IMG/VR virus record: IMGVR_UViG_3300032272_000011
Coordinates: 2,628 to 66,627 of that record
Reading direction: 5' to 3' (one strand)
Source: a virus
Lineage: Duplodnaviria > Caudoviricetes
DNA length: 64,000 nt
In this document: in pieces, positions 9,046 through 48,922 of the stretch
How the letters are laid out: the number at the start of each line of letters is the position of its first letter
Position numbering within the stretch: position 1 is the first letter of the stretch
Notes under the pieces: generated by a model
Databases searched by the model: none
The model's input: the letters and a program-made list of their open reading frames with translations, nothing else
What the model was told of the DNA's origin: nothing
Position numbers and translations under genes: made by a program

Positions 9046-9918
9046 GTGGCTTACGAACGATTGAGCATATTGGACTTCGGGAAGACCCTTCTCGAGACTG
9101 GGGACCTGGACCCCATCTACTGCGCCCTGCGCAACACCGGCTGGGACGCCGCTACGACCTCCCGGTTCCTGATGGCCTACTGGTCCTGGTACAACGCTGG
9201 CTCGGCGAGCTGGATGGCGGAGAAGGAAGGGGACGCCTACTGGGACGCCATGATGGTGGCTGCCCGAAACGAAGAGTCTGCCCCGACCCCCTTCGGGGAG
9301 CGCTGGCCTCGAGCCAAGGAGCGGCGCCACGCACGCGGCTCCGCTGCTGTGAAGATGGTCGAGCATCTGGTCTCCCTGGGCCAGGACCCGTTGGAGATCG
9401 TCAGCCGGATGATCTCTCCCCACAGCGACGGCGTCGTGCCCTACAACGACGTGCGGAAGCGCGTCAAGAAGCACTACCTGTTCGGCGAGTGGATCGCCTT
9501 CAAGGTCGCCGACATGGCGGAGCGGTGCATGGGGGTCAAGGTCAACTTCGACAACGCGGCGGTCTTCATGTTCACCGACCCTGTCAAGGCCGCGCTCATG
9601 GTGTGGCGCCAACAGCAGGGCCTCCCCGAAAACGCCATGCCCAGGGACAAGACCGCCGTGCTGAACGGCGTCACCGAGTGGATGGCGGAGCAGTTCAAGG
9701 ACATGACCGCTCCCCCGCTCAACGCACAGATTCAACGCAAGGTGGGGCTCCAAGAGGTGGAGACGATCCTGTGCAAGTGGAAGAGCCACATGGGTGGCCA
9801 CTACCCTGTCCTGAACGACATCCACGAGATCGGTCTTGCCTTGACCCCCTGGGCCAAGCTGGGTGGTCTCGCCAAGGAGTTCAGCGACGCCATGCCGAAC
9901 GGAGAGAAGCTGTCATGA
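9046..9918 (+). CDS. Amino acid:DNA transferase, aGPT-Pplase clade 2 (thymidine hypermodification)
   Basis: GDLDPIY, RWPRAKERRH, FGEWIAFKVADM, FMFTDP, CKWKSHMGGHYP motifs as recalled for M6 gp51/PaMx11 gp46. Confidence 0.8.
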   Translation: MAYERLSILDFGKTLLETGDLDPIYCALRNTGWDAATTSRFLMAYWSWYNAGSASWMAEKEGDAYWDAMMVAARNEESAPTPFGERWPRAKERRHARGSAAVKMVEHLVSLGQDPLEIVSRMISPHSDGVVPYNDVRKRVKKHYLFGEWIAFKVADMAERCMGVKVNFDNAAVFMFTDPVKAALMVWRQQQGLPENAMPRDKTAVLNGVTEWMAEQFKDMTAPPLNAQIQRKVGLQEVETILCKWKSHMGGHYPVLNDIHEIGLALTPWAKLGGLAKEFSDAMPNGEKLS

Positions 9919-10253
9919 AGATGGACCAGATGATCTCGGGCGTCGAGCTGCGTGCATCCGACAGCTCGTTCTTGCCGATGCTTGCCAAGATGCTCGCAGC
10001 AAAGGTCATGAAGCAGACCACGCGAACGGCTGACGGCTACCGGCTCACCGTGGAAGTGCGGCCGGTCTACAGCACCACGGTGTCGGCCTTGTACTGTTGC
10101 GTGAACCAGGAAGGAAACCTCCACCCGAGGACCATAGCCACGAAGCGCGACATCTCGTGGACCCTGCTGCTGGAGCAGCCGGAGATCCTGAGCCTGGACG
10201 AAGACGAGGTGAACGAGTTCTGGGCCGTGACCAAGATGAAAGGTGAAGACTGA
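9915..10253 (+). CDS. Hypothetical protein
   Basis: ATGA coupling to upstream gene; SD ggagag. Confidence 0.55.
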   Translation: MKMDQMISGVELRASDSSFLPMLAKMLAAKVMKQTTRTADGYRLTVEVRPVYSTTVSALYCCVNQEGNLHPRTIATKRDISWTLLLEQPEILSLDEDEVNEFWAVTKMKGED

Positions 10254-10513
10254 TGCCCCCCGATGAAATGACCGAGTTGGCAGCGAAGTTTGCAGAGTCG
10301 TCCAAGAAGCTCGAGGACCTGACCGAAGCGATGAGGTTGGCGGAGATGGAGGCGCAGCGCCTGTCGAAGACGCTCGAGGCAACAATCGACAGGCTCAAGA
10401 TCCTCCAGGACGACATCGAGCCTGGGGGCCAAACCATCTTCACCACGACGGACTGCCACGCCGTGGTGGTTGCCCCTGACTGCGTGATCTTCACCAGCAC
10501 GAGGGAGTGCTGA
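10253..10513 (+). CDS. Hypothetical coiled-coil protein
   Basis: TGATG coupling. Confidence 0.55.
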   Translation: MPPDEMTELAAKFAESSKKLEDLTEAMRLAEMEAQRLSKTLEATIDRLKILQDDIEPGGQTIFTTTDCHAVVVAPDCVIFTSTREC

Positions 10514-10800
10514 TGAATCAGTTCCTTCCACCACCCCTTTTCGAGATGGACCTCGTCGTGGTGAACGCCATCGCAGACTTGGGCATGAGCAACGGCGAGC
10601 CACATCTGGTGAGGTGGGCTCTCGAGCTGGAAGCAGTCGCACCTAAACCGAACGCCGTGGAACTGGACCTTGCCCAATGCGACGTCACTGACTTCCACGT
10701 GTGGAAGGATACGTTCGCCATCCACGCCGTTCTCTGGCTCACCATCGACTTCGAACCCACAGTCCACGGCGTTCGGTACAGACTGAAGAAAGGCAAATAA
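10513..10800 (+). CDS. Hypothetical protein
   Basis: TGATG coupling. Confidence 0.5.
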   Translation: MNQFLPPPLFEMDLVVVNAIADLGMSNGEPHLVRWALELEAVAPKPNAVELDLAQCDVTDFHVWKDTFAIHAVLWLTIDFEPTVHGVRYRLKKGK

Positions 10801-11015
10801 TGCTGACTGAAAAGGACATGCGCCTGATGCTCGAGATCATCGCGCAGAAGGTGGGGCGTGTCGGGTACTCAGAAGTGCGGGAAGAGGCACAGCTCCAAGC
10901 CAAGCTCAGCATCATGCTGGAGGCCCGTTTGCAAGTACTGCACAGGTCAGAAGACATCATCAACGCTTCCCTCAAAGCGATGCATGAAGGCAAAACGAGA
11001 GACAAACAATCGTGA
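10800..11015 (+). CDS. Hypothetical protein
   Basis: TAATG coupling. Confidence 0.5.
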   Translation: MLTEKDMRLMLEIIAQKVGRVGYSEVREEAQLQAKLSIMLEARLQVLHRSEDIINASLKAMHEGKTRDKQS

Positions 11016-11188
11016 GATACTCAGTTGAAATAAAGTGGAACCGAGAGTTCCACTTCGTGTGGCGTAGCAGCCACGAAACGCTCGACGAAGCGAGGTCCAG
11101 GGCCCACTCTCCGCTGAACATGGGAGACGGAGCCTGTGTCAAGGCAACCCGCATCCTCGACGAGAACACAGGAAAGTACGTCCGATGA
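11012..11188 (+). CDS. Small hypothetical protein (resembles 30826-30987)
   Basis: GTGA coupling; MRYSVEIKW...RILDENTGKYVR; not in ORF track. Confidence 0.5.
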   Translation: MRYSVEIKWNREFHFVWRSSHETLDEARSRAHSPLNMGDGACVKATRILDENTGKYVR

Positions 11189-11679
11189 AAACCCTACTCC
11201 TCCTCGTGGCGCTCAGCGCCTCCTCCCTGGCCCAGGGCGCCGACAACGACTGGGACAACTCCCTGGGTCCGTGGACCATCAGCCCCGCGACCCTCTACGT
11301 CGGAAGCTACCTGGATGGGACGCACGTCCCGTTCGAGTTCGGCATCTCCGTCACCGGCCTGAATGAGCCCGGCATCAACTGGCTCGTCTTCGGCTACCTG
11401 GAGCTGGTAGACGCTGACAACAACCCCACCCCCTGGTACAACTGGGTCTCGCGGAAGCCCGTGTTCAGCCTGGATCCAGTGGCCGGCGTGCCTCAGTTCC
11501 AGACCGACAAGAACCCGATCACGGAAGAGGACGAGGACGCTCTTTGGCTCCAGTCCACCTATCAGGCGAACGCCGTGGGTGTGCGAGTGGTCTACAGCGT
11601 CTGGTACCGGATCACCGGCTATGGCTGGTTCCGACAGACCGTCATCGGCCCGAACCTGCTGGGGATGCTGACGTCATGA
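11185..11679 (+). CDS. Signal-peptide-bearing exported protein
   Basis: MKTLLLLVALSASSLAQG signal peptide with SLA cleavage site. Confidence 0.65.
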   Translation: MKTLLLLVALSASSLAQGADNDWDNSLGPWTISPATLYVGSYLDGTHVPFEFGISVTGLNEPGINWLVFGYLELVDADNNPTPWYNWVSRKPVFSLDPVAGVPQFQTDKNPITEEDEDALWLQSTYQANAVGVRVVYSVWYRITGYGWFRQTVIGPNLLGMLTS

Positions 11680-12512
11680 AAGACTTCGACGCAATCGTCA
11701 TCGGTGCGGGCATCTTCGGCTGCACCATCACCCGCGCTCTTCGCGACGCCGGCAAGTCAGTCCTGCTGGTCTCCAAGAAGGAGCGCCTCTCGGGCTCCCA
11801 GGCGTCCGGCAACCTGATGAAGCCGGGTTGGTTTGCGGGGCTCGGCAAGGCGGTGTACGAACCGGCTCTGGCGCTCCTCGAGAGGCAGTACGGGATCCGC
11901 GACCTCACCTTCGCCGCCGGCAAGGGCGTGGTCCGCAAGGACGTGAAGGTGCACTGGGTCCCGCTGGAAAGCGTGCTCAGCGAGGAGAAGCTCGATGCCA
12001 CCGTCACCGATGTCGGTGCGGACGGCACCGTCTTCGTTGAGGGCCAAGGTGAGTTCCGCGCGCCGCTCGTCGTGGTGTGCGCAGGCTACTGGACCCAACA
12101 GCTCCTCGGCACCGGACCCACCGTGGTCGGCAAGCAGGGAGTCAGCCTCCGCTGGACCGAAGAGGAGTGCCCCGCGCAGATCACCCCCTGGGCACCGTAC
12201 AAACAGATCGTCCAGTACAGCTACATCACGGGGCCCGGCAAGTCGGCCATGTGGGCCGGAGACGGTACGGCGATCCTCCCCAAGAACTGGACCGGCGAGC
12301 GGATGCGACAAAGCGTGGACCGCGTCATCAAGCACGTCGGTGCTCACACGAAGCCGCTCCTCGTCCAGGGCATCCGTCCCTACGTCAAGGGGGCCAAGCC
12401 CTGCTTCCTCGAGGAGCTGTGGCCGGGCACGTGGGTCGCGACCGGCGGCGCCAAGAACGGTCAGCTCGCTGCCGGGTGGGCCGCACACAAGATCCTGGAG
12501 GCAACGTCATGA
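11676..12512 (+). CDS. FAD-dependent oxidoreductase (PaMx11 gp47-like flavin-dependent lyase)
   Basis: IVIGAGIFG Rossmann motif, GIRPY, ATGGAKNG; sits in the modification cluster. Confidence 0.8.
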   Translation: MKDFDAIVIGAGIFGCTITRALRDAGKSVLLVSKKERLSGSQASGNLMKPGWFAGLGKAVYEPALALLERQYGIRDLTFAAGKGVVRKDVKVHWVPLESVLSEEKLDATVTDVGADGTVFVEGQGEFRAPLVVVCAGYWTQQLLGTGPTVVGKQGVSLRWTEEECPAQITPWAPYKQIVQYSYITGPGKSAMWAGDGTAILPKNWTGERMRQSVDRVIKHVGAHTKPLLVQGIRPYVKGAKPCFLEELWPGTWVATGGAKNGQLAAGWAAHKILEATS

Positions 12513-12694
12513 GCTACCCCACGTGCCCTCACTGCGGAACGCAGATCACCGAGGGAGAGGACTACGCTCCCGCCGTCTCCGTGTGGGGATCCGACGGTGG
12601 ACGAGTCGCGCTCTGGTGTTCGGAGTGCGACAAGGACTTCTGGGTGGAGGAGCTGGTGAAGCGCACCTTCACGAGTTTCAAGGAGGAGACATGA
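12509..12694 (+). CDS. Zinc-ribbon protein
   Basis: CPHC...CSEC; coupled on both sides. Confidence 0.6.
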   Translation: MSYPTCPHCGTQITEGEDYAPAVSVWGSDGGRVALWCSECDKDFWVEELVKRTFTSFKEET

Positions 12695-13116
12695 TCAAGA
12701 TACGCACAGCGGGCATCCACGAGCACGACAAGGTGATGGAGATCGCCAAGACGTCGAAGTACACGCGGGACTTCAGCCACATGATGTTCAGCGGCGAGGC
12801 AGCCTACCAGAAGGAGTGGATCCGGGTCGCCGAGGAGGAGAGCACCGGTGTGCTCGTCGGGTTCTACTGCGTGCGCCACAAGGTCCGCAGCCCCGAGACC
12901 ACCATGTACTTCATCACCGTGCGCCCAGGGTTCACCAAGCTGGGGGTGGCGTCCGCGCTCCTCGAGGACCTCAAGGCGCAGTGCCCCAACAACCGAATCG
13001 TTCTCAACGTTATGAACGACAACAAACCTGCGCTTGGCTTTTACGCCAAACACGGGTTCAATACTGTTGGTCCTGCCCTGAAGGGCAAGGGCGTCCAACT
13101 TTCACTGGAGTGGTAA
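12691..13116 (+). CDS. GNAT acetyltransferase (PaMx11 gp48-like)
   Basis: VRPGFTKLGVASALL motif A; NKPALGFYAKHGF. Confidence 0.85.
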   Translation: MIKIRTAGIHEHDKVMEIAKTSKYTRDFSHMMFSGEAAYQKEWIRVAEEESTGVLVGFYCVRHKVRSPETTMYFITVRPGFTKLGVASALLEDLKAQCPNNRIVLNVMNDNKPALGFYAKHGFNTVGPALKGKGVQLSLEW

Positions 13117-13117
13117 C

Positions 13118-13351
13118 ATGAGCCAGAACGAAGCCGACAAGGTCGTCAAGTCCCAGAAGAACGACCCGTGCGGCTGCACCAACACTGTCTACGCGGACGA
13201 CACCTCCAACTTCTTTCCCTGCCTGGGCCACGCGCTCCTCAACGCTGGAGTCATGCTCCAAGCAGCCGGGCAGCGGTGGGCCCAGATCCAGGAGCAGGCC
13301 GTCGCGGCTGGCAGGCAGCAGCGCATGAAGAAAGGTCCCCACAAGCGATGA
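13118..13351 (+). CDS. Hypothetical protein
   Basis: Fills gap, coupled to kinase. Confidence 0.5.
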   Translation: MSQNEADKVVKSQKNDPCGCTNTVYADDTSNFFPCLGHALLNAGVMLQAAGQRWAQIQEQAVAAGRQQRMKKGPHKR

Positions 13352-13941
13352 TCTTCAACATCCGTGGAACCAGTGGGTCGGGCAAGACCACACTGGTGAA
13401 AGACGTCATCGGCTGGCTCACTGCCGAAGGCGCGGTGCTCCACGAGCACTTCCATCCTGGCCGCAAGCAACCACTGTGGTTCCAGCTCACCCGGCGCAAC
13501 GGTGAGGTGTGGTCGTTCATCGGCCACTACAACGCAGCGTGCGGCGGGTGCGACACCATCAACAGCATGGACTGGGTCTTCGAACTGGTGAAGGAGCGCC
13601 ACTTCGCCTCCGACCATCTGGTCTTCGAGGGGCTCATCGTTTGCTCCGATGCCCGGCGCATCATCGAGCTGGCAAAGGAGCACCGGGGTCAGCTCAAGGT
13701 CATCAACCTCAAGACCGACAAGGAGGTTTGCCTGGAAGGCATCCGCGCCCGACGCACCGCGCGTGGGGTCGACCCCAACGCACCCTTCAAGGAGTCCGTG
13801 GAACGCAACGTCAAGGCCAAGATGCGCACCTGCGAGAAGACGGCGGAGCGCATCGAGGCGGAGGCTCCCGGCACGGTAAAGCACATGACCCGTGACGAGG
13901 CCCGAGACTACCTGTACCAGTACGTGAGGTGGACGCCTTGA
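13348..13941 (+). CDS. P-loop kinase, probable 5-hmdU DNA kinase
   Basis: NIRGTSGSGKTT, GGCDTI, VFEGLIV; context. Confidence 0.75.
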   Translation: MIFNIRGTSGSGKTTLVKDVIGWLTAEGAVLHEHFHPGRKQPLWFQLTRRNGEVWSFIGHYNAACGGCDTINSMDWVFELVKERHFASDHLVFEGLIVCSDARRIIELAKEHRGQLKVINLKTDKEVCLEGIRARRTARGVDPNAPFKESVERNVKAKMRTCEKTAERIEAEAPGTVKHMTRDEARDYLYQYVRWTP

Positions 13942-14798
13942 AGCCCAACTACACAGAGTTCTTCGACTTCGCGAAGGAGCGGGAGGCGATCCGCGTCCAG
14001 AAGGCAAACCACGCTCGTCTGCCGTGGACCAAGGACAAGGTGCTGCAGGAGTTCCGCTTCTGCAACGTCTTCAGGGAGGACGACAAGACCACGAAGTGGT
14101 TCCGAGGAGAGATCCGCAGTCCGCTCCGCAACGACCCTTCCGTCCTCTTCGCCACCGTCGCCTTCCGCTGGTTCAACCGCATCAGCACCGGCAGGGCGCT
14201 GCTCCCCTGGCTCACTATGGAGAAGGAGTGGAACGAAGACGAGGTGCTGTGGGCCTTGAACGACATCGTCCGTGAAGGTCGCCCAATCGTGACCGGCGCC
14301 TACGTCATCAAGACTCCCAACGGGGCCCCGAAGTCGGAGGGCATCGTCGAGTGCTTGCGCCGGTTCCGCAAGCTGCACGAAAAACAGATCCTGGAAGTCG
14401 CATCGGCGGACGATGCCACGCTCGAGAAAGTGCACGAGCGCCTCATGTATGTGCCCTATCTGGGCTCGTTCATGGCCTACGAGATCGTGACGGACCTGCG
14501 CCACACCTACCTGCTCCGCGATGCGCCGGACATCATGACGTGGGCGGCGGCTGGCCCAGGGGCAGCGCGGGGGCTGGGGTGGCTGTACAACGGTGCCCCG
14601 GCAGGGTACAACTACCAGAGCACCAAGGGGCAATCCGAGTGCCTCTGGAGGATGAGACAAGTGCTCGCCGAGAGCGCCATCCAGTGGCCCATGGACCGCA
14701 TCTGGGAGATGCGCGAAGTCGAGCACACTCTGTGCGAATACGACAAGTGGAAGCGCGGTCACGATGGTGACCACCTGAAAAGGAAGTACCGACCATGA
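13929..14798 (+). CDS. alpha-glutamyl/putrescinyl thymine pyrophosphorylase, clade 1 (aGPT-Pplase1)
   Basis: FRFCNVFREDDKTT, FRWFN, LGSFMAYEIVTDL, EHTLCEYDKW. Confidence 0.8.
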   Translation: MDALKPNYTEFFDFAKEREAIRVQKANHARLPWTKDKVLQEFRFCNVFREDDKTTKWFRGEIRSPLRNDPSVLFATVAFRWFNRISTGRALLPWLTMEKEWNEDEVLWALNDIVREGRPIVTGAYVIKTPNGAPKSEGIVECLRRFRKLHEKQILEVASADDATLEKVHERLMYVPYLGSFMAYEIVTDLRHTYLLRDAPDIMTWAAAGPGAARGLGWLYNGAPAGYNYQSTKGQSECLWRMRQVLAESAIQWPMDRIWEMREVEHTLCEYDKWKRGHDGDHLKRKYRP

Positions 14799-15133
14799 AC
14801 CGTGACAAGCTCACCTGGAGAGAGCGCTTAGTCAAGCTGCACTTCGCCTTGGTCAGCACCCAGCCCAGCTCGTCCATGAGCAAGAAGCAGCACGCGAAGT
14901 GGGCCAAGAAGCACCACGACGAGATGGTCTTGGACCTCTGGCTCCATCACCTGGAGCACGAGGGGGCGCGGACCACCGAAGGCAAGACGTGGCTGAACCA
15001 CGTGCGCGACAACGAGTTTCCGAAAGTCAGCTCGGCCATCAAGCTGGCGGAGTGGTTGACCGACGCAACGCCTGACATGTACGACGGCGGGATGTCGGTC
15101 TGGGAAGAGTTCACTGGGAGATTTTCAACGTGA
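14795..15133 (+). CDS. Hypothetical protein
   Basis: Coupled on both sides. Confidence 0.5.
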   Translation: MNRDKLTWRERLVKLHFALVSTQPSSSMSKKQHAKWAKKHHDEMVLDLWLHHLEHEGARTTEGKTWLNHVRDNEFPKVSSAIKLAEWLTDATPDMYDGGMSVWEEFTGRFST

Positions 15134-16116
15134 TACACGTCAACACCCGGAATCCAGATGAGGGGTTGCAGGAGGTAGCCAAGCACCTGCTTGTCCACGG
15201 TTTCACCCGCAATAGCCGCAACGGCACCGTGCTCGCCTACGGCGAACCCGTCATGACCGAAGTCACCCACCCCACCGAGCGTGCGGTGCTCTGGGCCAAG
15301 CGGGACGCCAACCCGTTCTTCCACGTCATGGAAGCGCTGTGGATGCTGCACGGCGGTCAGGACGTGGCCTTCGTGAAGGAGTTCAACTCCAAGATCGTCA
15401 ACTACAGCGATGACGGGGCGACGTTCAACGGTGCCTACGGTCACCGGTGGCGCCACCACTTCGGCAAGGACCAGCTGAAGCTGATCGTCGCGGCCCTGAA
15501 GAAGGACCCCCAGTGCCGGCGCCAAGTGCTCAGCATGTGGGACGGCCACCGGGACCTCGGGCTCCAGTCCAAGGACCTGCCCTGCAACACCCACGCCTAC
15601 GTGCAGATCGATGCGATGGACAAGCTCGCTCTCACGATGTGCAACCGCTCCAACGACCTCGTGTGGGGCGCCTTCGGGGCGAACGTCGTCCACTTCACCT
15701 TCCTCCAGGAGTACCTCGCCTCCGCCCTGGGCAAGGAGATGGCACCCTACCGCAGCATGAGCGCCAACCTCCACTGCTACCTGGACATCCACGAGGGTCT
15801 CCTCCGGGACTTGGCCAGCCGCGACTTGGTGCCCAGCACCTACAGGTCAATGGAGGAGAGAGAGCGGTGCCCGCTGATGTCACTGCCCGTGAACCGATGG
15901 CAGCGTGAGCTGGACATGTTCATGGCTGACACCGAGACCAGCTTCGACGACCCGTTCTTCACGACCGTCGCTGTGCCGATGCGCAACGCCTGGAGGGCCT
16001 TCAAGAACAAGGCCGACCCTCAGCGAGTCGATGCCGCTCTCGAGCACGTGAAGGACATCGGAACCTGGGACTGGAACGCAGCGTGCGCGACGTGGCTCCA
16101 TCGGAGGTTGAAGTAA
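15130..16116 (+). CDS. Thymidylate-synthase homologue, probable dUMP hydroxymethylase
   Basis: RRQVLSMWD, DLPCN, NRSNDLVWGAFGAN, SANLHCY. Confidence 0.85.
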   Translation: MIHVNTRNPDEGLQEVAKHLLVHGFTRNSRNGTVLAYGEPVMTEVTHPTERAVLWAKRDANPFFHVMEALWMLHGGQDVAFVKEFNSKIVNYSDDGATFNGAYGHRWRHHFGKDQLKLIVAALKKDPQCRRQVLSMWDGHRDLGLQSKDLPCNTHAYVQIDAMDKLALTMCNRSNDLVWGAFGANVVHFTFLQEYLASALGKEMAPYRSMSANLHCYLDIHEGLLRDLASRDLVPSTYRSMEERERCPLMSLPVNRWQRELDMFMADTETSFDDPFFTTVAVPMRNAWRAFKNKADPQRVDAALEHVKDIGTWDWNAACATWLHRRLK

Positions 16117-16640
16117 TGGCTTGGCCCACACAGAAGCTCGTCACGGCTCTCCGCGAAGCAGGAGCCGTCCGACGCTGCCACGCCACCCCCTGGCATGGTG
16201 AGTACAACATCGCCACCCACAGCTACAACGCAGTCAACCTGCTCTTGATGCTGCACCCAAACCCGAGCATGGAACTGGTGAAGGCCATACTCTGGCACGA
16301 CGTGCCGGAACGGTGGCTCGGAGACCTGCCCGCACCCGCGAAGTGGAGCAACGGAGAGTTCGCCAAGCTGTACGAATCGATGGAGCGCAAGGTGGAGTGG
16401 GTCATCGGGACCTACGTTCACCTCACCGCGAGCGAGCGAGTTTGGCTGCACGCAGTCGACAAGATAGAACTGCTGCTATCCGCCAAAGAACAGTTGGCTT
16501 CTGGGAACCAAGCTGCGGCACAATACGTAGCAGCGCTCCTGGGCTGGTTCAAGACCGCCGTGATGCCCCAGTCGTGCACTGACTTCGTGAACGAACACCG
16601 ATACGAAAGGCTCCCCGATGTCGTACCAACAGAATCTTGA
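16116..16640 (+). CDS. HD-domain (YfbR-like) deoxynucleotidase
   Basis: VRRCH, IATHSY, LWHDVPE..GDLPAPAK, DKIE. Confidence 0.8.
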   Translation: MAWPTQKLVTALREAGAVRRCHATPWHGEYNIATHSYNAVNLLLMLHPNPSMELVKAILWHDVPERWLGDLPAPAKWSNGEFAKLYESMERKVEWVIGTYVHLTASERVWLHAVDKIELLLSAKEQLASGNQAAAQYVAALLGWFKTAVMPQSCTDFVNEHRYERLPDVVPTES

Positions 16641-36188: not shown

Positions 36189-36544
36189 AGGAGAGGGGCT
36201 CCAGCAGCGCCGCTGGGGGAGCGGGGAGGCGCCCAGGGGGCTCAGCGCCGCCTTGCGCAGCAGCGGAAAGGCGGCGCTGAGCTGTGTGATCGATATAACT
36301 TCCTGGGGAAGAGGGGGTTGGGCTGGAAAAGCGCTGTTTTGCGGGAAGTTTGTGGAGCACTTGACAAGAGCGGAGTACCGGAGCAACACTATTGGGGGAA
36401 GGAGTTACGACGTTTTGAAAATCGGGAGTGCGATCTTATGGACCCCCTAAACGTCCTGCAAAGTGTGGTTTGCTCACGGACTCACGATTGTCGGCTGTTT
36501 CTGAGGGTGGTAACCTCCTGTGGCCCAGTGGAATGCAACGGAAT

Positions 36545-36752
36545 ACTCATGGATCTCTCTTTTCAAAAGAGAGAGTAGAGAGAGAAAGAGCGTATATAGG
36601 AGTCGAGAGAGCCTCCTCCTCCTCCGTAGCGTTTTGACGCTCTCACGTGAGTTCCATGAGTAATTGTGGGAACCCCCCTGGGCAGAGGGAGTTGCCATGC
36701 TCAAGTGTGACTCATGGATGGGTGCGGGGCGTGAGTCCATGAGTCACGTGAG
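36545..36752. repeat. Left boundary element (ACTCATGGA/CACGTGA motifs and purine tract)
   Basis: 36560-36602 matches reverse complement of 42027-42069 at 38/43; four ACTCATGGA/TCCATGAGT copies. Confidence 0.75.
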
Positions 36753-37292: not shown

Positions 37293-37320
37293 CTATCGTC
37301 GATCGACGCCCGGGGCTTTA
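37293..37320 (-). promoter_or_regulatory. sigma28-type promoter (leftward)
   Basis: TAAA-N16-GACGATAG on minus strand. Confidence 0.65.
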
Positions 37321-37362
37321 CACGTTTCCAGAAACGTCTTTGAACACGTTTCTAAATACGTG

Positions 37363-37390
37363 TTATGGCCGGCGGCCCGATCGCCGATAA
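37363..37390 (+). promoter_or_regulatory. sigma28-type promoter
   Basis: TTAT-N16-GCCGATAA. Confidence 0.6.
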
Positions 37391-37457
37391 GAGAAGTGTC
37401 GGGGGGCGGTAAGTAAGCCGCCCCCGCCGCCCGCGCCCCCTACCGTTAGGTCCCGCC

Positions 37458-37811
37458 GTGCTAAAGCTCGTCCCCGCTAACCCGTCCCTCGTCGCCGATT
37501 TTGGCCTGCTTCCCCTGCCCGGCGGCGCCGCCCCCTTAGTCGCCTGGGATGTAACCTTTGCCGGCTCCCCGGATTCCCTGCTTTACGTGTCCGGTACCCG
37601 TACCGGCGGGGTGGCCGTGGTAATCGTTTCCCCCGACGATTGTTATACGGGGCGCGTATTTACCGCGTGGGTCGGGGCCGGGGCGGTTCCTTGGGTCCGG
37701 CGTTTCTTTCCGTCCGCGCGGGTTTCGGCCGCCGCCGCTAAGGCTGCTGGTCTGGCGCCTTTGGGCGGGGGCGCGTGCGTGGGTACCGCGTTTACCCCCG
37801 CCGCGCTGTAG
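37458..37811 (+). CDS. Early cassette protein, CA-free sense strand
   Basis: GTG start; 117 aa with no E, Q or H; own promoter. Confidence 0.6.
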   Translation: MLKLVPANPSLVADFGLLPLPGGAAPLVAWDVTFAGSPDSLLYVSGTRTGGVAVVIVSPDDCYTGRVFTAWVGAGAVPWVRRFFPSARVSAAAAKAAGLAPLGGGACVGTAFTPAAL

Positions 37812-37823
37812 GTTACCGCCGGG

Positions 37824-37864
37824 GCGCCTTTGGCCTTGGCGCTACGCGCCAAGGCCAAAGGCGC
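37824..37864. repeat. Perfect 19-bp hairpin with 3-nt loop
   Basis: gcgcctttggccttggcgc-tac-gcgccaaggccaaaggcgc. Confidence 0.9.
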
Positions 37865-37877
37865 GCCAAGAAACGTG

Positions 37878-38305: not shown

Positions 38306-38333
38306 TAAAGGGCGCGGCGCCGATCGCCGATAA
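38306..38333 (+). promoter_or_regulatory. sigma28-type promoter
   Basis: TAAA-N16-GCCGATAA. Confidence 0.75.
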
Positions 38334-38392
38334 AGAGAGTAGGCCGGGGGTGACCCCGGCGCTGGCCCAACCCCGCGCCCGAAAGGCAACCC

Positions 38393-38638
38393 ATGAAGAA
38401 GCTAACCCGCTCCCAGGCCCGCTATCTCCTCGTCGAGGGCAAGAATATCGCTCGCCGCCTGCAGGTCATTACTACCCTCCTGGACGCCGCCTGCCCGGCC
38501 GGAGGGCCGCCCTCGGAGCTGGACGCCGAGTTCGCCTCGCCGGACGGCCAGGACTACTCGGAGGCCCTCCTCGGCGCCGTCCGAAAGGTTGCTGCCCACC
38601 TCGATTTGGACGCTGAAGACATCTTGGAAAACGCCTAA
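38393..38638 (+). CDS. Early cassette hypothetical protein
   Basis: Own promoter; its stop is the TAA of the next -35. Confidence 0.7.
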   Translation: MKKLTRSQARYLLVEGKNIARRLQVITTLLDAACPAGGPPSELDAEFASPDGQDYSEALLGAVRKVAAHLDLDAEDILENA

Positions 38639-38663
38639 AGGGCGCGGCGCCGATCGCCGATAA
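38636..38663 (+). promoter_or_regulatory. sigma28-type promoter
   Basis: TAAA-N16-GCCGATAA. Confidence 0.75.
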
Positions 38664-38702
38664 AGAGAGTAGGCCGGGGGAGTCCCGGCCTGGAGCCGAC
38701 CG

Positions 38703-38930
38703 ATGAAAACCGAAACCCGCATCTCCCCTACCCTTTCCCGCGTCGCCGTTGGCGGGGTCCTCCTGGATACCCTGAAAAGCCGCGCTGGAGCGCTGGTTTA
38801 CTTCGTCGCCGATGAACTTACGGACGAAGTTATCTTACAAACCTACGACAAAGCTGCGGCCGAGGAACTGTTCACCGCGCTAACTGTTATCGCGCCTGAA
38901 GATTCAGGCCCGGTCGTCCGGCGCCGCTAA
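38703..38930 (+). CDS. Early cassette hypothetical protein
   Basis: GGAG SD; own promoter. Confidence 0.7.
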   Translation: MKTETRISPTLSRVAVGGVLLDTLKSRAGALVYFVADELTDEVILQTYDKAAAEELFTALTVIAPEDSGPVVRRR

Positions 38931-39069
38931 AGGCACGCCCCGTGCCGCCTTTGCCCCTGGGCTAAAGGCAGCGCGGGGGAAGCATTTAGCCGGGCGCGCC
39001 TGGGTATGAACAGACTCCCCCGTGCCTTTAGGCACGCGCCCCAGGCCGGTCTCCCCCGGCCTACTCTCT

Positions 39070-39097
39070 TTATCGGCGCGATCCGGTCCGGTCTTTA
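39070..39097 (-). promoter_or_regulatory. sigma28-type promoter (leftward)
   Basis: TAAA-N16-GCCGATAA on minus strand, back-to-back with 39113. Confidence 0.7.
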
Positions 39098-39112
39098 GGC
39101 TTTTCTTTTTAC

Positions 39113-39140
39113 TAAAGCCAACCCCGCCGATCGCCGATAT
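39113..39140 (+). promoter_or_regulatory. sigma28-type promoter
   Basis: TAAA-N16-GCCGATAT. Confidence 0.75.
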
Positions 39141-39195
39141 AGAGAGTAGGCCGGGGGTGACCCGGCGACCCAACCCCGCGCCCGAAAGGCACCCG

Positions 39196-39528
39196 ATGAT
39201 GAACCTTGACGACCTGATCGAAGAGCTGACCGACCTGCGGACCGAACTCGCCCACTCACGCGGGATTTCCGAGGAAAAGGCGGGAGAGATCGAAGTGATG
39301 ATCGCCTACCAGCCAAACTACCCCCTGCGCGTAGGAATCAGCTCGGTGACGGGCTTCCAGGATTCCAACCAGCCCGTGTACCTTTCCTCGGGCGGCGAAA
39401 GCAACTACGTGACCAAAGAAGCGTGGGATGGCGGCTTAGTGGAGCTGGAGGACCTCTGCGAGTACTGCGGAAAACACGCGGAGGAAGAAATCTGCGAAGA
39501 GGCGCGGGATTGCGGCGAGCTGCTCTAA
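39196..39528 (+). CDS. Early cassette hypothetical protein
   Basis: Own promoter; IAYQPNYPL motif; C-terminal CxxC. Confidence 0.7.
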   Translation: MMNLDDLIEELTDLRTELAHSRGISEEKAGEIEVMIAYQPNYPLRVGISSVTGFQDSNQPVYLSSGGESNYVTKEAWDGGLVELEDLCEYCGKHAEEEICEEARDCGELL

Positions 39529-39546
39529 GGCGCGCCAGGAAACGCC

Positions 39547-39574
39547 TAAAGGCCCCGGCGCCGATCGCCGATAA
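39547..39574 (+). promoter_or_regulatory. sigma28-type promoter
   Basis: TAAA-N16-GCCGATAA. Confidence 0.75.
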
Positions 39575-41097: not shown

Positions 41098-41116
41098 AGG
41101 CGCGCCAAGAAAGGTG

Positions 41117-41144
41117 TAAAGCGTAGGCGCTACGTCGCCGATAA
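41117..41144 (+). promoter_or_regulatory. sigma28-type promoter
   Basis: TAAA-N16-GCCGATAA. Confidence 0.75.
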
Positions 41145-41207
41145 GAGAGGTATAAGGGGGCGCGGCGCGCGTCCTCCCCCGCCCGGCCCCGTAACGGTAA
41201 CCTTGCC

Positions 41208-41441
41208 ATGCCTACCTCTTCCTGCCCCGTCGTCCTTACCGCCGCTAACCTTGCTTACGACGCGCTTCTCGCTAACGGGGCTGCGGCCGTCGCTAACGGG
41301 TTCCCGCTCTGCTCGGACGGTTACCCCCTGGCCTCGTCGCTGCTCCCCCTCTGCGCCGCCCTCGCCGTCCTGGAGGGTCGGGGTCGGCTCGCTGTAAGCG
41401 TCGCTGCCGACTTCCTTTCTGAGGCTGAAGGTATGGTGTAA
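41208..41441 (+). CDS. Early cassette protein, CA-free sense strand
   Basis: 77 aa hydrophobic; no Q, H, K or I; own promoter. Confidence 0.6.
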   Translation: MPTSSCPVVLTAANLAYDALLANGAAAVANGFPLCSDGYPLASSLLPLCAALAVLEGRGRLAVSVAADFLSEAEGMV

Positions 41442-41656
41442 GCCGTCTTTGTTAGGGGTGGGCGTGCGCTGCTAAGGCGCGCGCGTCTGTCTCTTCGTCG
41501 TGGAGAAAGTAAGGAGGGGGGTACCTTCGAGGGCGTGGCGCCACTGCCCCTACTCCAGCCACCAAAATCCATTACCCCACCCAAATCAGTTGTCATACTT
41601 TCCAGAATCGCCTCAAACCACTTGTCGTTCGTTCGTCTTCAGCCGATATCTCTTGT

Positions 41657-41905: not shown

Positions 41906-42165
41906 TACTCACGTGACTCACGTCCCTGCAAACACCAAAGCACGCTAAACCCTTCTGGCCCAGGAGGTACTCACGCAACTCACGTGACTCAAGCTTTTTC
42001 AAGGTTGCGAGCAGAGAGCAGCGAGCCTCCTCTATACACCCTTTCTCTATCTCCTCTCTCTTTTGAAAAAGAGTGAGTTCCATGAGTAAACCATTGCAAG
42101 TACCTCCCCGGCAGCGGTTTGCCGTGCTCATGGAACGGTTTTACGACTTGAGCATTCCATGAGTC
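41906..42165. repeat. Right boundary element (inverted partner of 36545-36752)
   Basis: CTCACGTGACTCA and TCCATGAGT motifs; 42027-42069 inverted match to left element. Confidence 0.75.
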
Positions 42166-46709: not shown

Positions 46710-48356
46710 ATGCCCACGACTGTTGACAACACGATTGGCTCCACCGGCACCTACTCCACCCCGACGGCATGGGAGGTGGACACTGACAACAATCACGTGA
46801 CGGCGGACGAGCACCACCGTGGGTTGCTCCAGTCACAGGCCCACGCGCTCGGCACCACGCGCCTGCAGATCAACGGTTCGACCACCAGCGCGACTCAGTT
46901 CAGGGAGATGGTGCCGGACGACGGCGCGATCTTCGATCCCGAGGCGGAGACCGGCGCACACCTCACCTACAGCGGCACCCTCGGGGCGCTCCACTTCATC
47001 GAAGCCAACTTCCGCTTCGGTGGTGGCATCGGGATCATCATGAGCGGAGGCGCGACGGGTGAGGTGATTCTCACTCAGGTGGCGGACCAAGTGACGGACG
47101 GCGTCACGATCATCAACCGCTGCACCGGCACCCTCACCTACGGCATTGAGGGATCGTTCACCGCTGCGGGATTGGTCGCCCGCAACGTCATATACATCCA
47201 CGACACCACCAGCGCCATGACCGCCGTGTTTACGGATCTGAACGAGGTGTCAAACTGTACGACCCACGCCCAACAGGGGTCGTTCACGCGGATGAGCGAG
47301 GGGAACGCTTCCAAAACCCAGATTGTCAAGAACTGCGCAGCCTTCGGCTCCTCCGGTGACCCGTTCGACGCGAACACCACGGCAACCACGTGCACCAGTG
47401 ACTTCGCCATCGCCGGGGGTGAAGGCACCGGCTCCCTGACCGATACGGACGAGTTCACTGACCCGGCCAACAGCGACTACTCCCTGAAGGACACCGGGTC
47501 CTCGTACCAGAACGGTGCGGACCTCAGCGCGGACTTCCTCCTGGACTACAACCAGGATACCCGCGACACGTGGGACATCGGGGCGCTCGCCCACGCCGAC
47601 TCCATCCCCGCCACGTCCACGAACGGACCGGCGGTCCTCACCGCTGCCGCAGCAACCATGGCGTCCTCGGGCGTCGAGACCATGGAGGGTGCCACCGCTC
47701 CCTCCGCTGGCGCGGCGACCATGACCTCGTCCGGCTCTTCGCTCCTCGGCGCAGTCGGCGCACCAACCCTTGTCGGTGCCGCTGCCACTATGGCTTCGAG
47801 CGGTTCCGCAGCTGCTGAAGGCTCCGCCCCCTTGGAAACCCCCGCCGCACTACTCAACGCCTCTGGCACCCTGGGCTATACCGGGACCTCGGGCCTCACT
47901 GCCCCCGCTGCAACCTTCGCCACCACAGCGGCGTCTGGTACTCCACTGTCCGTGGTCAAGTCCTTTGCTGCTTGGCTGTGCGGCAAGACGGGCCAAGACG
48001 ACTCCATGTACCTCGCGAACAAGCGAACGCTTCAGTACACCGTGGGCTCGCTCGCGGACGAAGCGGTCGTGGAAGACCTCACCCCCTACGGTGACATCAA
48101 GTGGACCCTGTCCCGAATCAGTCCTTCCGGTCAGATCCTCACTGCTTCGCCCGTGGTCGAGAAGAAGCTGTCCGACCTCACCCTCAGCGCCACCTTGGTG
48201 TCCGGCATCGTGAACGTGCCGCTCCTCAACGAGGACACCGAAGCCCTCCAGCCCGGCACGTACCACATGGAGCTGGAGCTGTTCGACGTGTTCGGTGAGG
48301 CGGCAGTGGTGGCAACCGGAACCATGACGTTGGTCGCCAACGTGGAGAATACCTGA
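46710..48356 (+). CDS. Virion structural protein (beta-helix-like N-terminus, Ala/Ser linker, Ig-like C-terminus)
   Basis: 548 aa Thr/Ala/Gly-rich; DFLLDY...WDIGA. Confidence 0.55.
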   Translation: MPTTVDNTIGSTGTYSTPTAWEVDTDNNHVTADEHHRGLLQSQAHALGTTRLQINGSTTSATQFREMVPDDGAIFDPEAETGAHLTYSGTLGALHFIEANFRFGGGIGIIMSGGATGEVILTQVADQVTDGVTIINRCTGTLTYGIEGSFTAAGLVARNVIYIHDTTSAMTAVFTDLNEVSNCTTHAQQGSFTRMSEGNASKTQIVKNCAAFGSSGDPFDANTTATTCTSDFAIAGGEGTGSLTDTDEFTDPANSDYSLKDTGSSYQNGADLSADFLLDYNQDTRDTWDIGALAHADSIPATSTNGPAVLTAAAATMASSGVETMEGATAPSAGAATMTSSGSSLLGAVGAPTLVGAAATMASSGSAAAEGSAPLETPAALLNASGTLGYTGTSGLTAPAATFATTAASGTPLSVVKSFAAWLCGKTGQDDSMYLANKRTLQYTVGSLADEAVVEDLTPYGDIKWTLSRISPSGQILTASPVVEKKLSDLTLSATLVSGIVNVPLLNEDTEALQPGTYHMELELFDVFGEAAVVATGTMTLVANVENT

Positions 48357-48922
48357 TGCCTTCTGCTATCGTGACGACCGAGCCGGGGATCAACAGCTAC
48401 GACACCGTGGCCAACGCGGATACGTACCACGACGACTCCGCGCGTGGGGCCGATTGGGTGTTTGTGGCCCCGGCCGACAAGACCCGTGCGATGCTGTCCG
48501 CGTTCCAGCTCATCGAGCGGCGGCTCTACACCGGCAGCAAGACGGGCGGCGCCTCACAGGAGGCGCAGTTCCCCCGCTCTGGGCTCACCGACATCAACGG
48601 TGACGCGGTTGCTTCGGACGCGGTGCCCCAGGCCGTGATCGACGCGCAGTTCGAGTTCGCCCTGGACATCTCGGCTGACCCCACGATCATCACCAAGAAG
48701 ACCACCGGCTCGACCATCAAGCGGGTGAAGGGTGGTCCTGCGGAGGTGGAGTTCTTCGGGGGCTCCGGCACGAGCAAGGGCACGCGGTTTCCCACCATCG
48801 TGGAGGAGCTGCTCCGTCCCTTCCTCGGCGCTGCGGGCGCTTCGGCCCCGGTGGTCGGCGCACCGGACTGCACCCCGACCTCCAGCTTCGAGAGCACCCC
48901 CGAAGTGAGCCGAGGGTACTGA
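48356..48922 (+). CDS. Head-tail adaptor (DnaT-like family)
   Basis: NSYDTVANADTYH, QEAQFPR, KRVKGGPAEVEF. Confidence 0.7.
   Translation: MPSAIVTTEPGINSYDTVANADTYHDDSARGADWVFVAPADKTRAMLSAFQLIERRLYTGSKTGGASQEAQFPRSGLTDINGDAVASDAVPQAVIDAQFEFALDISADPTIITKKTTGSTIKRVKGGPAEVEFFGGSGTSKGTRFPTIVEELLRPFLGAAGASAPVVGAPDCTPTSSFESTPEVSRGY

Follow-up and report, generated by a model that had tools for sequence, protein, structure and literature searches.

Two orphan phage genes without CA on the sense strand: template strands possibly kept free of the phage's own hypermodified thymidine

The locus described here raises the question of why a phage gene should lose one common dinucleotide from one of its strands. 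The window, that is, the whole 64,000-nucleotide stretch of DNA that was analyzed, spans bases 2628-66627 of an IMG/VR record of an uncultured virus that is complete at 66.6 kb. CA is an ordinary dinucleotide in this genome, where it accounts for 6.5% of all dinucleotides with an observed/expected ratio of 1.02. The + strand of interval 41108-41541 contained a single CA (41207-41208, formed with the C preceding the ATG), whereas base composition predicts 18 and the genome-wide average about 28. A sequence-only reading made before this analysis had claimed that CA is nearly absent here and that the one remaining copy overlaps the start codon, and our count agreed with it. A gap scan of the whole window showed that the two largest distances between neighboring CAs in 64 kb were 37345 to 37850 (505 nt) and 41207 to 41542 (335 nt), while the third was 131 nt. 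A geometric model gave per-genome expectations of 7e-12 for a gap of 505 nt and 7e-7 for one of 335 nt. The window contains exactly two CA-purged units, 37346-37850 and 41108-41541.

On the strand that has lost CA, the other dinucleotides of interest were counted in the interval 41108-41541. TG (24) and TC (32) were near expectation, so the purge is strand-specific. TA was enriched (22 versus 12 expected), and the content of A was 13% in the interval and 10% in its ORF, compared with 20% genome-wide. Avoidance of a palindromic restriction site, in which a motif and its reverse complement would be depleted together, did not fit these data, as 1 CA and 24 TG were present in the same 434 nt. The depletion at 41108-41541 is therefore confirmed as real and specific to one strand. 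GA was minimized as well. The six GA in ORF 41208-41441 all lie within Asp or Glu codons (GAC three times, GAG twice, GAA once), which is the floor for this protein, and the five GA in the sister ORF 37458-37811 are all Asp codons, again the floor. The earlier claim that GA is confined to Asp/Glu codons thus held for ORF 41208-41441 but not for the whole interval, in which eight more GA were found in the promoter (GATAAGAGAGG) and the 3' trailer. What is avoided is S-before-A on the sense strand, which is T-before-S (TS) on the template strand.

The contribution of codon choice was determined by synonymous resampling, in which the protein was held fixed and the codons were redrawn by the genome's own usage, with 5000 resamples per ORF. 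The resampling predicted 7.4 CA for the 77-codon ORF 41208-41441 and 12.4 for the 117-codon sister ORF, and none was observed in either. A count of zero was reached in 0 of 5000 resamples for each ORF, which ruled out chance or amino-acid composition as the cause of the CA loss. These data support the proposal, already made from the sequence, that the CA-free state reflects selection. The synonymous CA z-scores of the two purged genes were -4.4 and -3.4, values that cannot fall further because the CA count is already zero, and the score was never below -3.0 among 80 control ORFs. Coding-strand TG and TC in the purged ORFs showed no difference from the resampling expectation. All 18 A-starting codons of the two ORFs follow a codon ending in T or A, and these include the 7 of 7 internal ones in 41208-41441 that had been listed in the first reading; in a control cassette gene, A-starting codons were mostly preceded by codons ending in C or G. 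Both proteins are devoid of His and Gln, and Glu, Lys, Ile, and Thr are reduced in them. Template TG was cleared even at amino-acid cost, and template TC by synonymous choice only.

We also examined whether the two ORFs are real coding frames. ORF length by itself was not significant (P = 0.12 and 0.07) and was dropped as proof of coding; the in-frame position of GA was used in its place. Because every surviving GA is in frame (for six GA, P is about (1/3)^6), the two ORFs are taken as real coding frames. GC2 was lowest in the called frame, and the constraint was frame-specific, as is expected of a protein-coding gene rather than a non-coding RNA.

The elements of the interval 41108-41541 are all on the + strand. 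A pattern scan identified a sigma28/FliA-type promoter at 41117-41144, with a -35 TAAA (41117-41120) and a -10 GCCGATAA (41137-41144) separated by 16 nt, within the 15-16 nt of this promoter type. The promoter has a variant tail, TCGCCGATAAGAGAGGT (41135-41151), which has two matches in 64 kb, carries one A fewer than the standard GATAAAGAGAGTAGG, and lacks the GGCCGGGGG stem. It is followed by a G/C-rich, CA-free 5' leader (41152-41207) without a clear Shine-Dalgarno sequence, for which hairpin prediction was no better than for shuffled sequences. The 77-codon ORF (41208-41441) encodes an orphan protein, and behind it the sequence and the gap scan define a CA-free 3' trailer of 100 nt (41442-41541). 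The CA-free run ends at 41541 on the descending arm of a palindrome, GTGGCGCCAC. A strong Shine-Dalgarno-like sequence, TAAGGAGG, is located in the trailer at 41510-41517, with no obvious ORF or suitably spaced canonical start codon behind it. The sister unit (37346-37850, + strand) consists of a variant sigma28-type promoter (37363-37390), the 117-codon ORF 37458-37811, and a 19-bp hairpin. This hairpin (37821-37866) was predicted at -49.4 kcal/mol with a z-score of -7.7, and its descending arm closes the CA-free run.

Both units belong to an array of single-gene cassettes at 37.3-41.5 kb, upstream of terS and terL (42235 and 42989), in which a conserved repeat precedes each cassette. A scan for TAAA-N14-17-GCCGATAA returned 11 copies, all at 37.3-41.2 kb, nine on the + strand and two on the - strand. 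The cassette promoters number 13 in all and form one sigma28-type class. The 11 standard copies all carry ...GATAAAGAGAGTAGG and continue as ...AAGAGAGTAGGCCGGGGG. The variant tail TCGCCGATAAGAGARGT occurs exactly twice in the window (37381 and 41135), where no copy is expected by chance; these two copies read ...GATAAGAGARGT, followed by a different G-rich segment, and each heads a purged ORF. The suggestion that the two CA-free genes share variant promoter tails was thus upheld, since both variant copies precede purged ORFs and the 11 standard copies differ. The promoter scan found no sigma70-type promoter across the cassette region. Neither a phage sigma factor nor a single-subunit RNA polymerase came to light, a weak negative because the PF00940 control gave no match either, and on this ground the host polymerase is the likely reader. 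The promoters resemble those of the sigma28 family (FliA/SigD/WhiG) in the TAAA-N16-GCCGATAA arrangement, found in 11 copies by scan; they differ in being phage-borne and arrayed before orphan, presumably early genes, and their recognition by a host sigma28 is putative.

A mild synonymous CA deficit (z about -2.1 to -2.4) was found in the cassette genes 38393, 38703, and 39614 and was absent from the last three standard cassettes. Gene 38703 had been described as intermediate on a count of 10 of 15; the count was correct, and the deficit is weak (CA z = -2.4, GA z = -2.9), so that the gene is weakly intermediate. The leftward sigma28-type promoters at 37293-37320 and 39070-39097 (both - strand) each diverge from a + strand promoter, and the unit that starts from 37293 enters ORF-poor repeat DNA and retains TS on its template. 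Inverted repeats some 70 nt long (with 43 nt at 88% and 30 nt at 80% identity), located at 36534-36602 and 42027-42098, bracket the early cassette just upstream of terS.

The proteins encoded by the two purged ORFs are unrelated to each other (BLASTP E = 14), and both ORFs have zero CA, which agrees with the earlier view that a similar recoding exists in two non-homologous genes. No homologue of either protein was found among 5.8e9 clustered proteins, in IMG/VR by pattern search and tblastn, or in 80 loci around related TerL genes. None of the 11 cassette proteins matched a Pfam or PHROG family. AF2 run on the single sequence of the 77-aa protein gave two helices with a pLDDT of 62, which was too weak for a fold search, and ESM Atlas neighbors were all below 0.9 and uninformative.

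Genes for replication and nucleotide metabolism form a module in the genome, and a full thymidine-hypermodification cluster is part of it. This cluster (9052-16637, + strand) is colinear with gp46-gp52 of phage PaMx11, as determined by tblastn (38-48% identity) and Pfam searches, and contains an amino acid:DNA transferase, an FAD oxidoreductase, a GNAT acetyltransferase, a P-loop kinase, a 5-hmdU DNA kinase helical domain, a dUMP hydroxymethylase-like thymidylate synthase, and an HD hydrolase. The homologues of gp46 (9052-9897, 46% identity), gp47 (11688-12497, 38%), and gp48 (12691-13059, 48%) were identified by tblastn, and together with the GNAT Pfam match they supply the transferase, oxidoreductase, and acetyltransferase. 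The two parts of the 5-hmdU DNA kinase, the P-loop (13168-13941, a weak HMUD2/AAA_33 match) and the helical domain (13929-14798, PF18723, 1.4e-44), showed 39-45% identity to PaMx11 gp49/gp50. The thymidylate synthase homologue (15130-16116) matched PF00303 at 3.2e-19 and was 45% identical to PaMx11 gp51. The PaMx11 enzyme set has been reconstituted and makes 5-acetylaminomethyl-dU (5-AcNmdU) (PMC8989533); judged by gene content, the modified base of the present phage is probably of the same 5-acetylaminomethyl-dU type.

The purged contexts were compared with the published sequence contexts of such marks. In phages M6, ViI, and phiW-14, the restriction-resistant sites share TG or TC (Flodman et al. 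2019, PMC6449724), and the 5-hmdU DNA kinase has been proposed to be TS-specific, and the M6 kinase was reported to modify TG (PMC6449724). In phage SH-Ab 15599, a 2026 study found marks mainly at TG, then at TC, and at far fewer TT and TA (PMC13458397). The purge fits this context, because template TG is essentially gone, template TC is minimized, and the leftover T stands before A or T, which follows the order TG > TC >> TT/TA. Ordinary genes of this genome have about 15 CA plus GA per 100 nt of sense strand, which corresponds to a modifiable template T every 6-7 nt. The gene set is therefore like that of the described pathways (PaMx11, M6, ViI, phiW-14, and SH-Ab 15599), being colinear with PaMx11, and the purged contexts are the ones reported for them. 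However, that literature covers the placement of marks and the blocking of restriction, not genes that evade their own phage's marks.

Relatives were investigated by scanning 80 IMG/VR loci around related large terminases for dinucleotide-free runs. The strongest case was L026:11-3616 (IMGVR_UViG_3300037042_003043), in which about 3.5 kb upstream of terL has virtually zero CA and TG on either strand. The longest run free of both is 2434 nt, with an expected number of about 1e-108; TC and GA are raised in this island, and sigma28-type promoters are present. The TGs that remain are only those of GTG or ATG start codons 6-7 nt past a -10 element, a placement that suggests leaderless transcripts. 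Two further ORFs, each preceded by GGAGG, lack a canonical start codon and could only start at ATT. In L004:5600-8200, also upstream of the terminase, a 2.6-kb island has TG, TC, CA, and GA at about a third and TA up 3.5-fold. This locus belongs to a complete genome (G001) that has the kinase (53% identity) and a thymidylate synthase homologue. The L004 island is a mosaic of ORFs purged on the template strand, on the coding strand, or on both: a 28-codon ORF with zero CA and GA and normal TG and TC shows the asymmetry seen in 41108-41541, and two paralogous ORFs have a TC-poor coding strand. Arrays of GTCTTACGTAAGA-like repeats flank this island. L031:6838-7329 and L072:3364-3855 each contain two adjacent small genes whose coding strand is TC-free over 491 nt (expected number about 1e-12), with TG and GA normal or raised; the contig, which is 62% complete, showed no kinase.

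G013 and G014, near-complete relatives that lack the kinase, had no runs free of TS/SA. The pathway-bearing cultured phages M6, PaMx11, and PhiJL001 (for PhiJL001, the first 50 kb) had no dinucleotide-free runs, so the purge is no general requirement of hypermodifying phages. The symmetric purges of L026 and L004, and the fact that the strongly purged dinucleotides of the kinase lineage all fall in the TS/SA set, argue for a cause at the level of DNA, tied to hypermodification, rather than at the level of RNA. In the window only the template strand was cleared, which points to a process that reads the template, namely transcription.

We consider it somewhat probable that the template strands of the two units with variant promoters are maintained without hypermodified T, so that host RNA polymerase can read these units from the fully modified infecting genome, or at any modification state. 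In this proposal, 41108-41541 would be a single-gene transcription unit under a sigma28-type promoter, and selection would have cleared its template strand of the contexts in which the phage pathway turns 5-hydroxymethyl-dU into bulky hypermodified thymidine. Template TG would have been removed completely except for the one at the start codon, template TC would have been removed by synonymous changes and kept for Asp and Glu only, and template T overall would have been halved in the unit. In virion DNA, the template strands of the 41208-41441 gene and of its sister 37458-37811 would then carry essentially no hypermodified base, and the two genes would constitute a privileged, probably immediate-early class. 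We infer the modification at TS in this phage, the hindrance of RNA polymerase by template marks, the timing, and the roles of the proteins. A strand-dependent effect of 5-substituted uracils on transcription has been reported for T7 RNA polymerase (PMC11550810). Several observations stand against this reading. TS-rich templates are found in the other 11 sigma28-type units and in all essential genes, which must nevertheless be transcribed, and the leftward sigma28-type unit at 37293 is unpurged; one template TG is left at the start codon, and GA is kept in the promoter and trailer; and M6, PaMx11, and PhiJL001 have the pathway without purged genes. The logic of a cleared template strand is also not universal, because relatives purge the coding strand only (L031; L004 6007-6451) or both strands (L026). 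A further version, which we regard as tentative and unlikely, makes the two genes pioneers: bulky T marks on the template strand would obstruct host RNA polymerase, the two orphan products would be needed before the marked genome is expressed, and the purged dinucleotides would reveal the modification motif. As a corollary, this motif may be TG in L026, TG and TC in G000 and G001, and other sets elsewhere. The sequence-only reading, which took the two genes as the earliest and suggested that their products may open the rest of the modified genome to transcription, is partly supported: selection, the shared variant promoter, and the fit to the TG/TC context hold, while all 13 cassette promoters fall into one class.

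The main alternative at the RNA level is that the mRNA avoids CpA, together with GpA, to survive an RNase, either a host enzyme of the abortive-infection or toxin kind or a phage enzyme for host shutoff. The purge in the window affects the sense strand only and spans the leader, ORF, and trailer of the presumed transcript, as such protection would demand, and the coding strand of L031 is devoid of UC. In L026, TG is kept only in starts at the predicted 5' end of leaderless transcripts, with internal genes apparently starting at ATT, and an RNase that needs 5' flanking residues could explain this pattern. There is also a parallel in the ACA-less mRNAs that resist the MazF endoribonuclease, where a short motif is likewise purged from the sense strand through synonymous choice and amino-acid bias to give a privileged transcript. 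Unlike in the MazF case, no cognate RNase domain was seen here among about 30 larger phage ORFs scanned, and relatives purge the reverse complement too, which points to DNA: genes of L026 and L004 lack a dinucleotide together with its reverse complement (CA with TG, TC with GA), a double-strand signature. Moreover, the untranslated parts show no avoidance of GA, the ranking CA > GA parallels the published TG > TC, all purged dinucleotides of the lineage lie within the TS/SA set predicted by thymidine hypermodification, and we know of no RNase with S-before-A specificity. Protection of the RNA is for these reasons quite unlikely. Another alternative is proofing against defense, in which a host nuclease or glycosylase damages the hypermodified strands, and the target-free templates stay transcribable and encode counter-defense proteins. 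The sequence evidence for it is the same as for the favored reading. Lesions stop RNA polymerase only when they are on the template strand, and a block of this kind would account for the asymmetry between strands; the products are orphans and presumably early, a profile typical of anti-defense genes. We nevertheless hold this explanation to be improbable: the rest of the genome would still suffer lethal damage in the absence of repair or stepwise entry, the two proteins show no link to defense, and no enzyme that depends on modified T is known to have been characterized (PMC6449724 reports that none was found).

Two other explanations do not involve the phage's own marks. Another recognizer of short motifs in the first-entering DNA, such as a host nuclease, a CRISPR PAM, or a DNA-binding silencer, would be consistent with the AG/CT/CC/GG-free island of G008, which has no kinase, with the location of islands upstream of the terminase in several genomes, and with the inverted repeats that bracket the cassette beside terS. 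However, recognizers of double-stranded DNA select on both strands, while one strand is purged here, and the match of both motif and hierarchy to TS would be a coincidence, which makes this explanation decidedly improbable. A mutational footprint, that is, strand-biased hypermutation in units with very high transcription, for example C-to-T changes at CpA where the non-template strand lies exposed, is the least credible and would be highly improbable. The CA loss is indeed accompanied by a TA gain (22 versus 12 expected), and the junction codons mostly end in T, the product of a C-to-T transition. Such a process would nevertheless have turned CAA and CAG into stop codons, and the ORFs are open; His and Gln are missing, but every GA has been retained in frame in an Asp or Glu codon. 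Codons ending in G have disappeared in front of A too, which deamination of C cannot achieve, A is halved overall, and neighboring cassettes of the same promoter class are unaffected.

Several known systems resemble parts of the favored reading, according to which template strands are kept free of the phage's marks. In the avoidance of restriction sites and other short motifs by phages, for which the T7 early region is an example of a site-poor region, selection strips a short sequence from a region while coding capacity is kept. The present case differs in that a dinucleotide is removed from one strand of two single genes, and in that it would be the target of the phage's own enzyme and not of a host nuclease. 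T4 Alc, which acts on cytosine-containing DNA, and the hmU-dependent transcription of SPO1 are modification-dependent programs in which, as in vertebrate CpG islands by analogy, the modification state of DNA selects the genes that are read, and motif-free islands mark privileged genes. The mechanism there is either the sensing of global modification by proteins or the protection of sites from methylation, whereas here the sites are deleted from the template. Each component is known, from the PaMx11-type pathway and the TS context to sigma28-type promoters and motif avoidance; what is unusual is the strand specificity of the purge and its probable target, that of self-modification. A literature search found no account of a gene or island from which a phage's own hypermodification motif had been purged. 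If the favored reading is true, the two units would be the first sign that thymidine hypermodification costs a phage some of its own gene expression, and that phages compensate by keeping chosen genes motif-free on the strand that is read. A modification-gated gene class would be a form of temporal control not described before. Exact modification motifs in the literature have largely been deduced from restriction patterns, and since the purged dinucleotide would be the target of the enzyme, the purge would provide a computational read-out of modification specificity, from sequence only, for uncultured phages. The two orphan proteins and similar ones in relatives would then be candidates for the first functions of a hypermodified genome. 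The claim is directly testable with the in vitro-reconstituted PaMx11 enzymes.

Additional observations were made on the composition of relatives. The kinase-positive genomes G005 (genome of L011) and G016 (genome of L068) have low TG/CA throughout, with observed/expected ratios of 0.48/0.49 and 0.8, and TC/GA are over-represented genome-wide in both (1.6-1.8). G008 (genome of L016) contains a 1.4-kb island at 47193-48609 (L128:7193-8609), about 11 kb upstream of terL, with zero AG, CT, CC, and GG. C occurs there only before A or G, and the island holds plausible, heavily recoded small ORFs. This genome has no kinase, but it has a thymidylate synthase-like gene, a dCMP deaminase, a dUTPase_2, and a PolA fused to a UDG domain. 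Since the dinucleotides missing from this kinase-less genome's island are others, the cause of motif-free islands may be more general.

Finally, the source of the DNA was analyzed. The 'direct terminal repeat' of the record was rejected as a physical genome end, as it is a 127-bp assembly overlap that gives no entry polarity. No DNA similarity to the cassette was found among 50,697 phage records. The standard promoter sequence was on no other viral contig, the variant sequence had a single viral match, in an unrelated phage of 39% GC, and two metagenome scans for the promoter sequence returned nothing or only single chance or bacterial matches. Among public runs, the stretch was present only in the source sediment metagenome, as assembled contigs, and in no RNA data set; no variants were seen. 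In the contigs of the source run, 38327-39569 was at about twice the depth of its flanks (63-74 versus 33-37), and one contig joined 39044 back to 37300. The rise in depth and this joint may reflect a duplication variant, or the repeated promoters may have made the assembly ambiguous.
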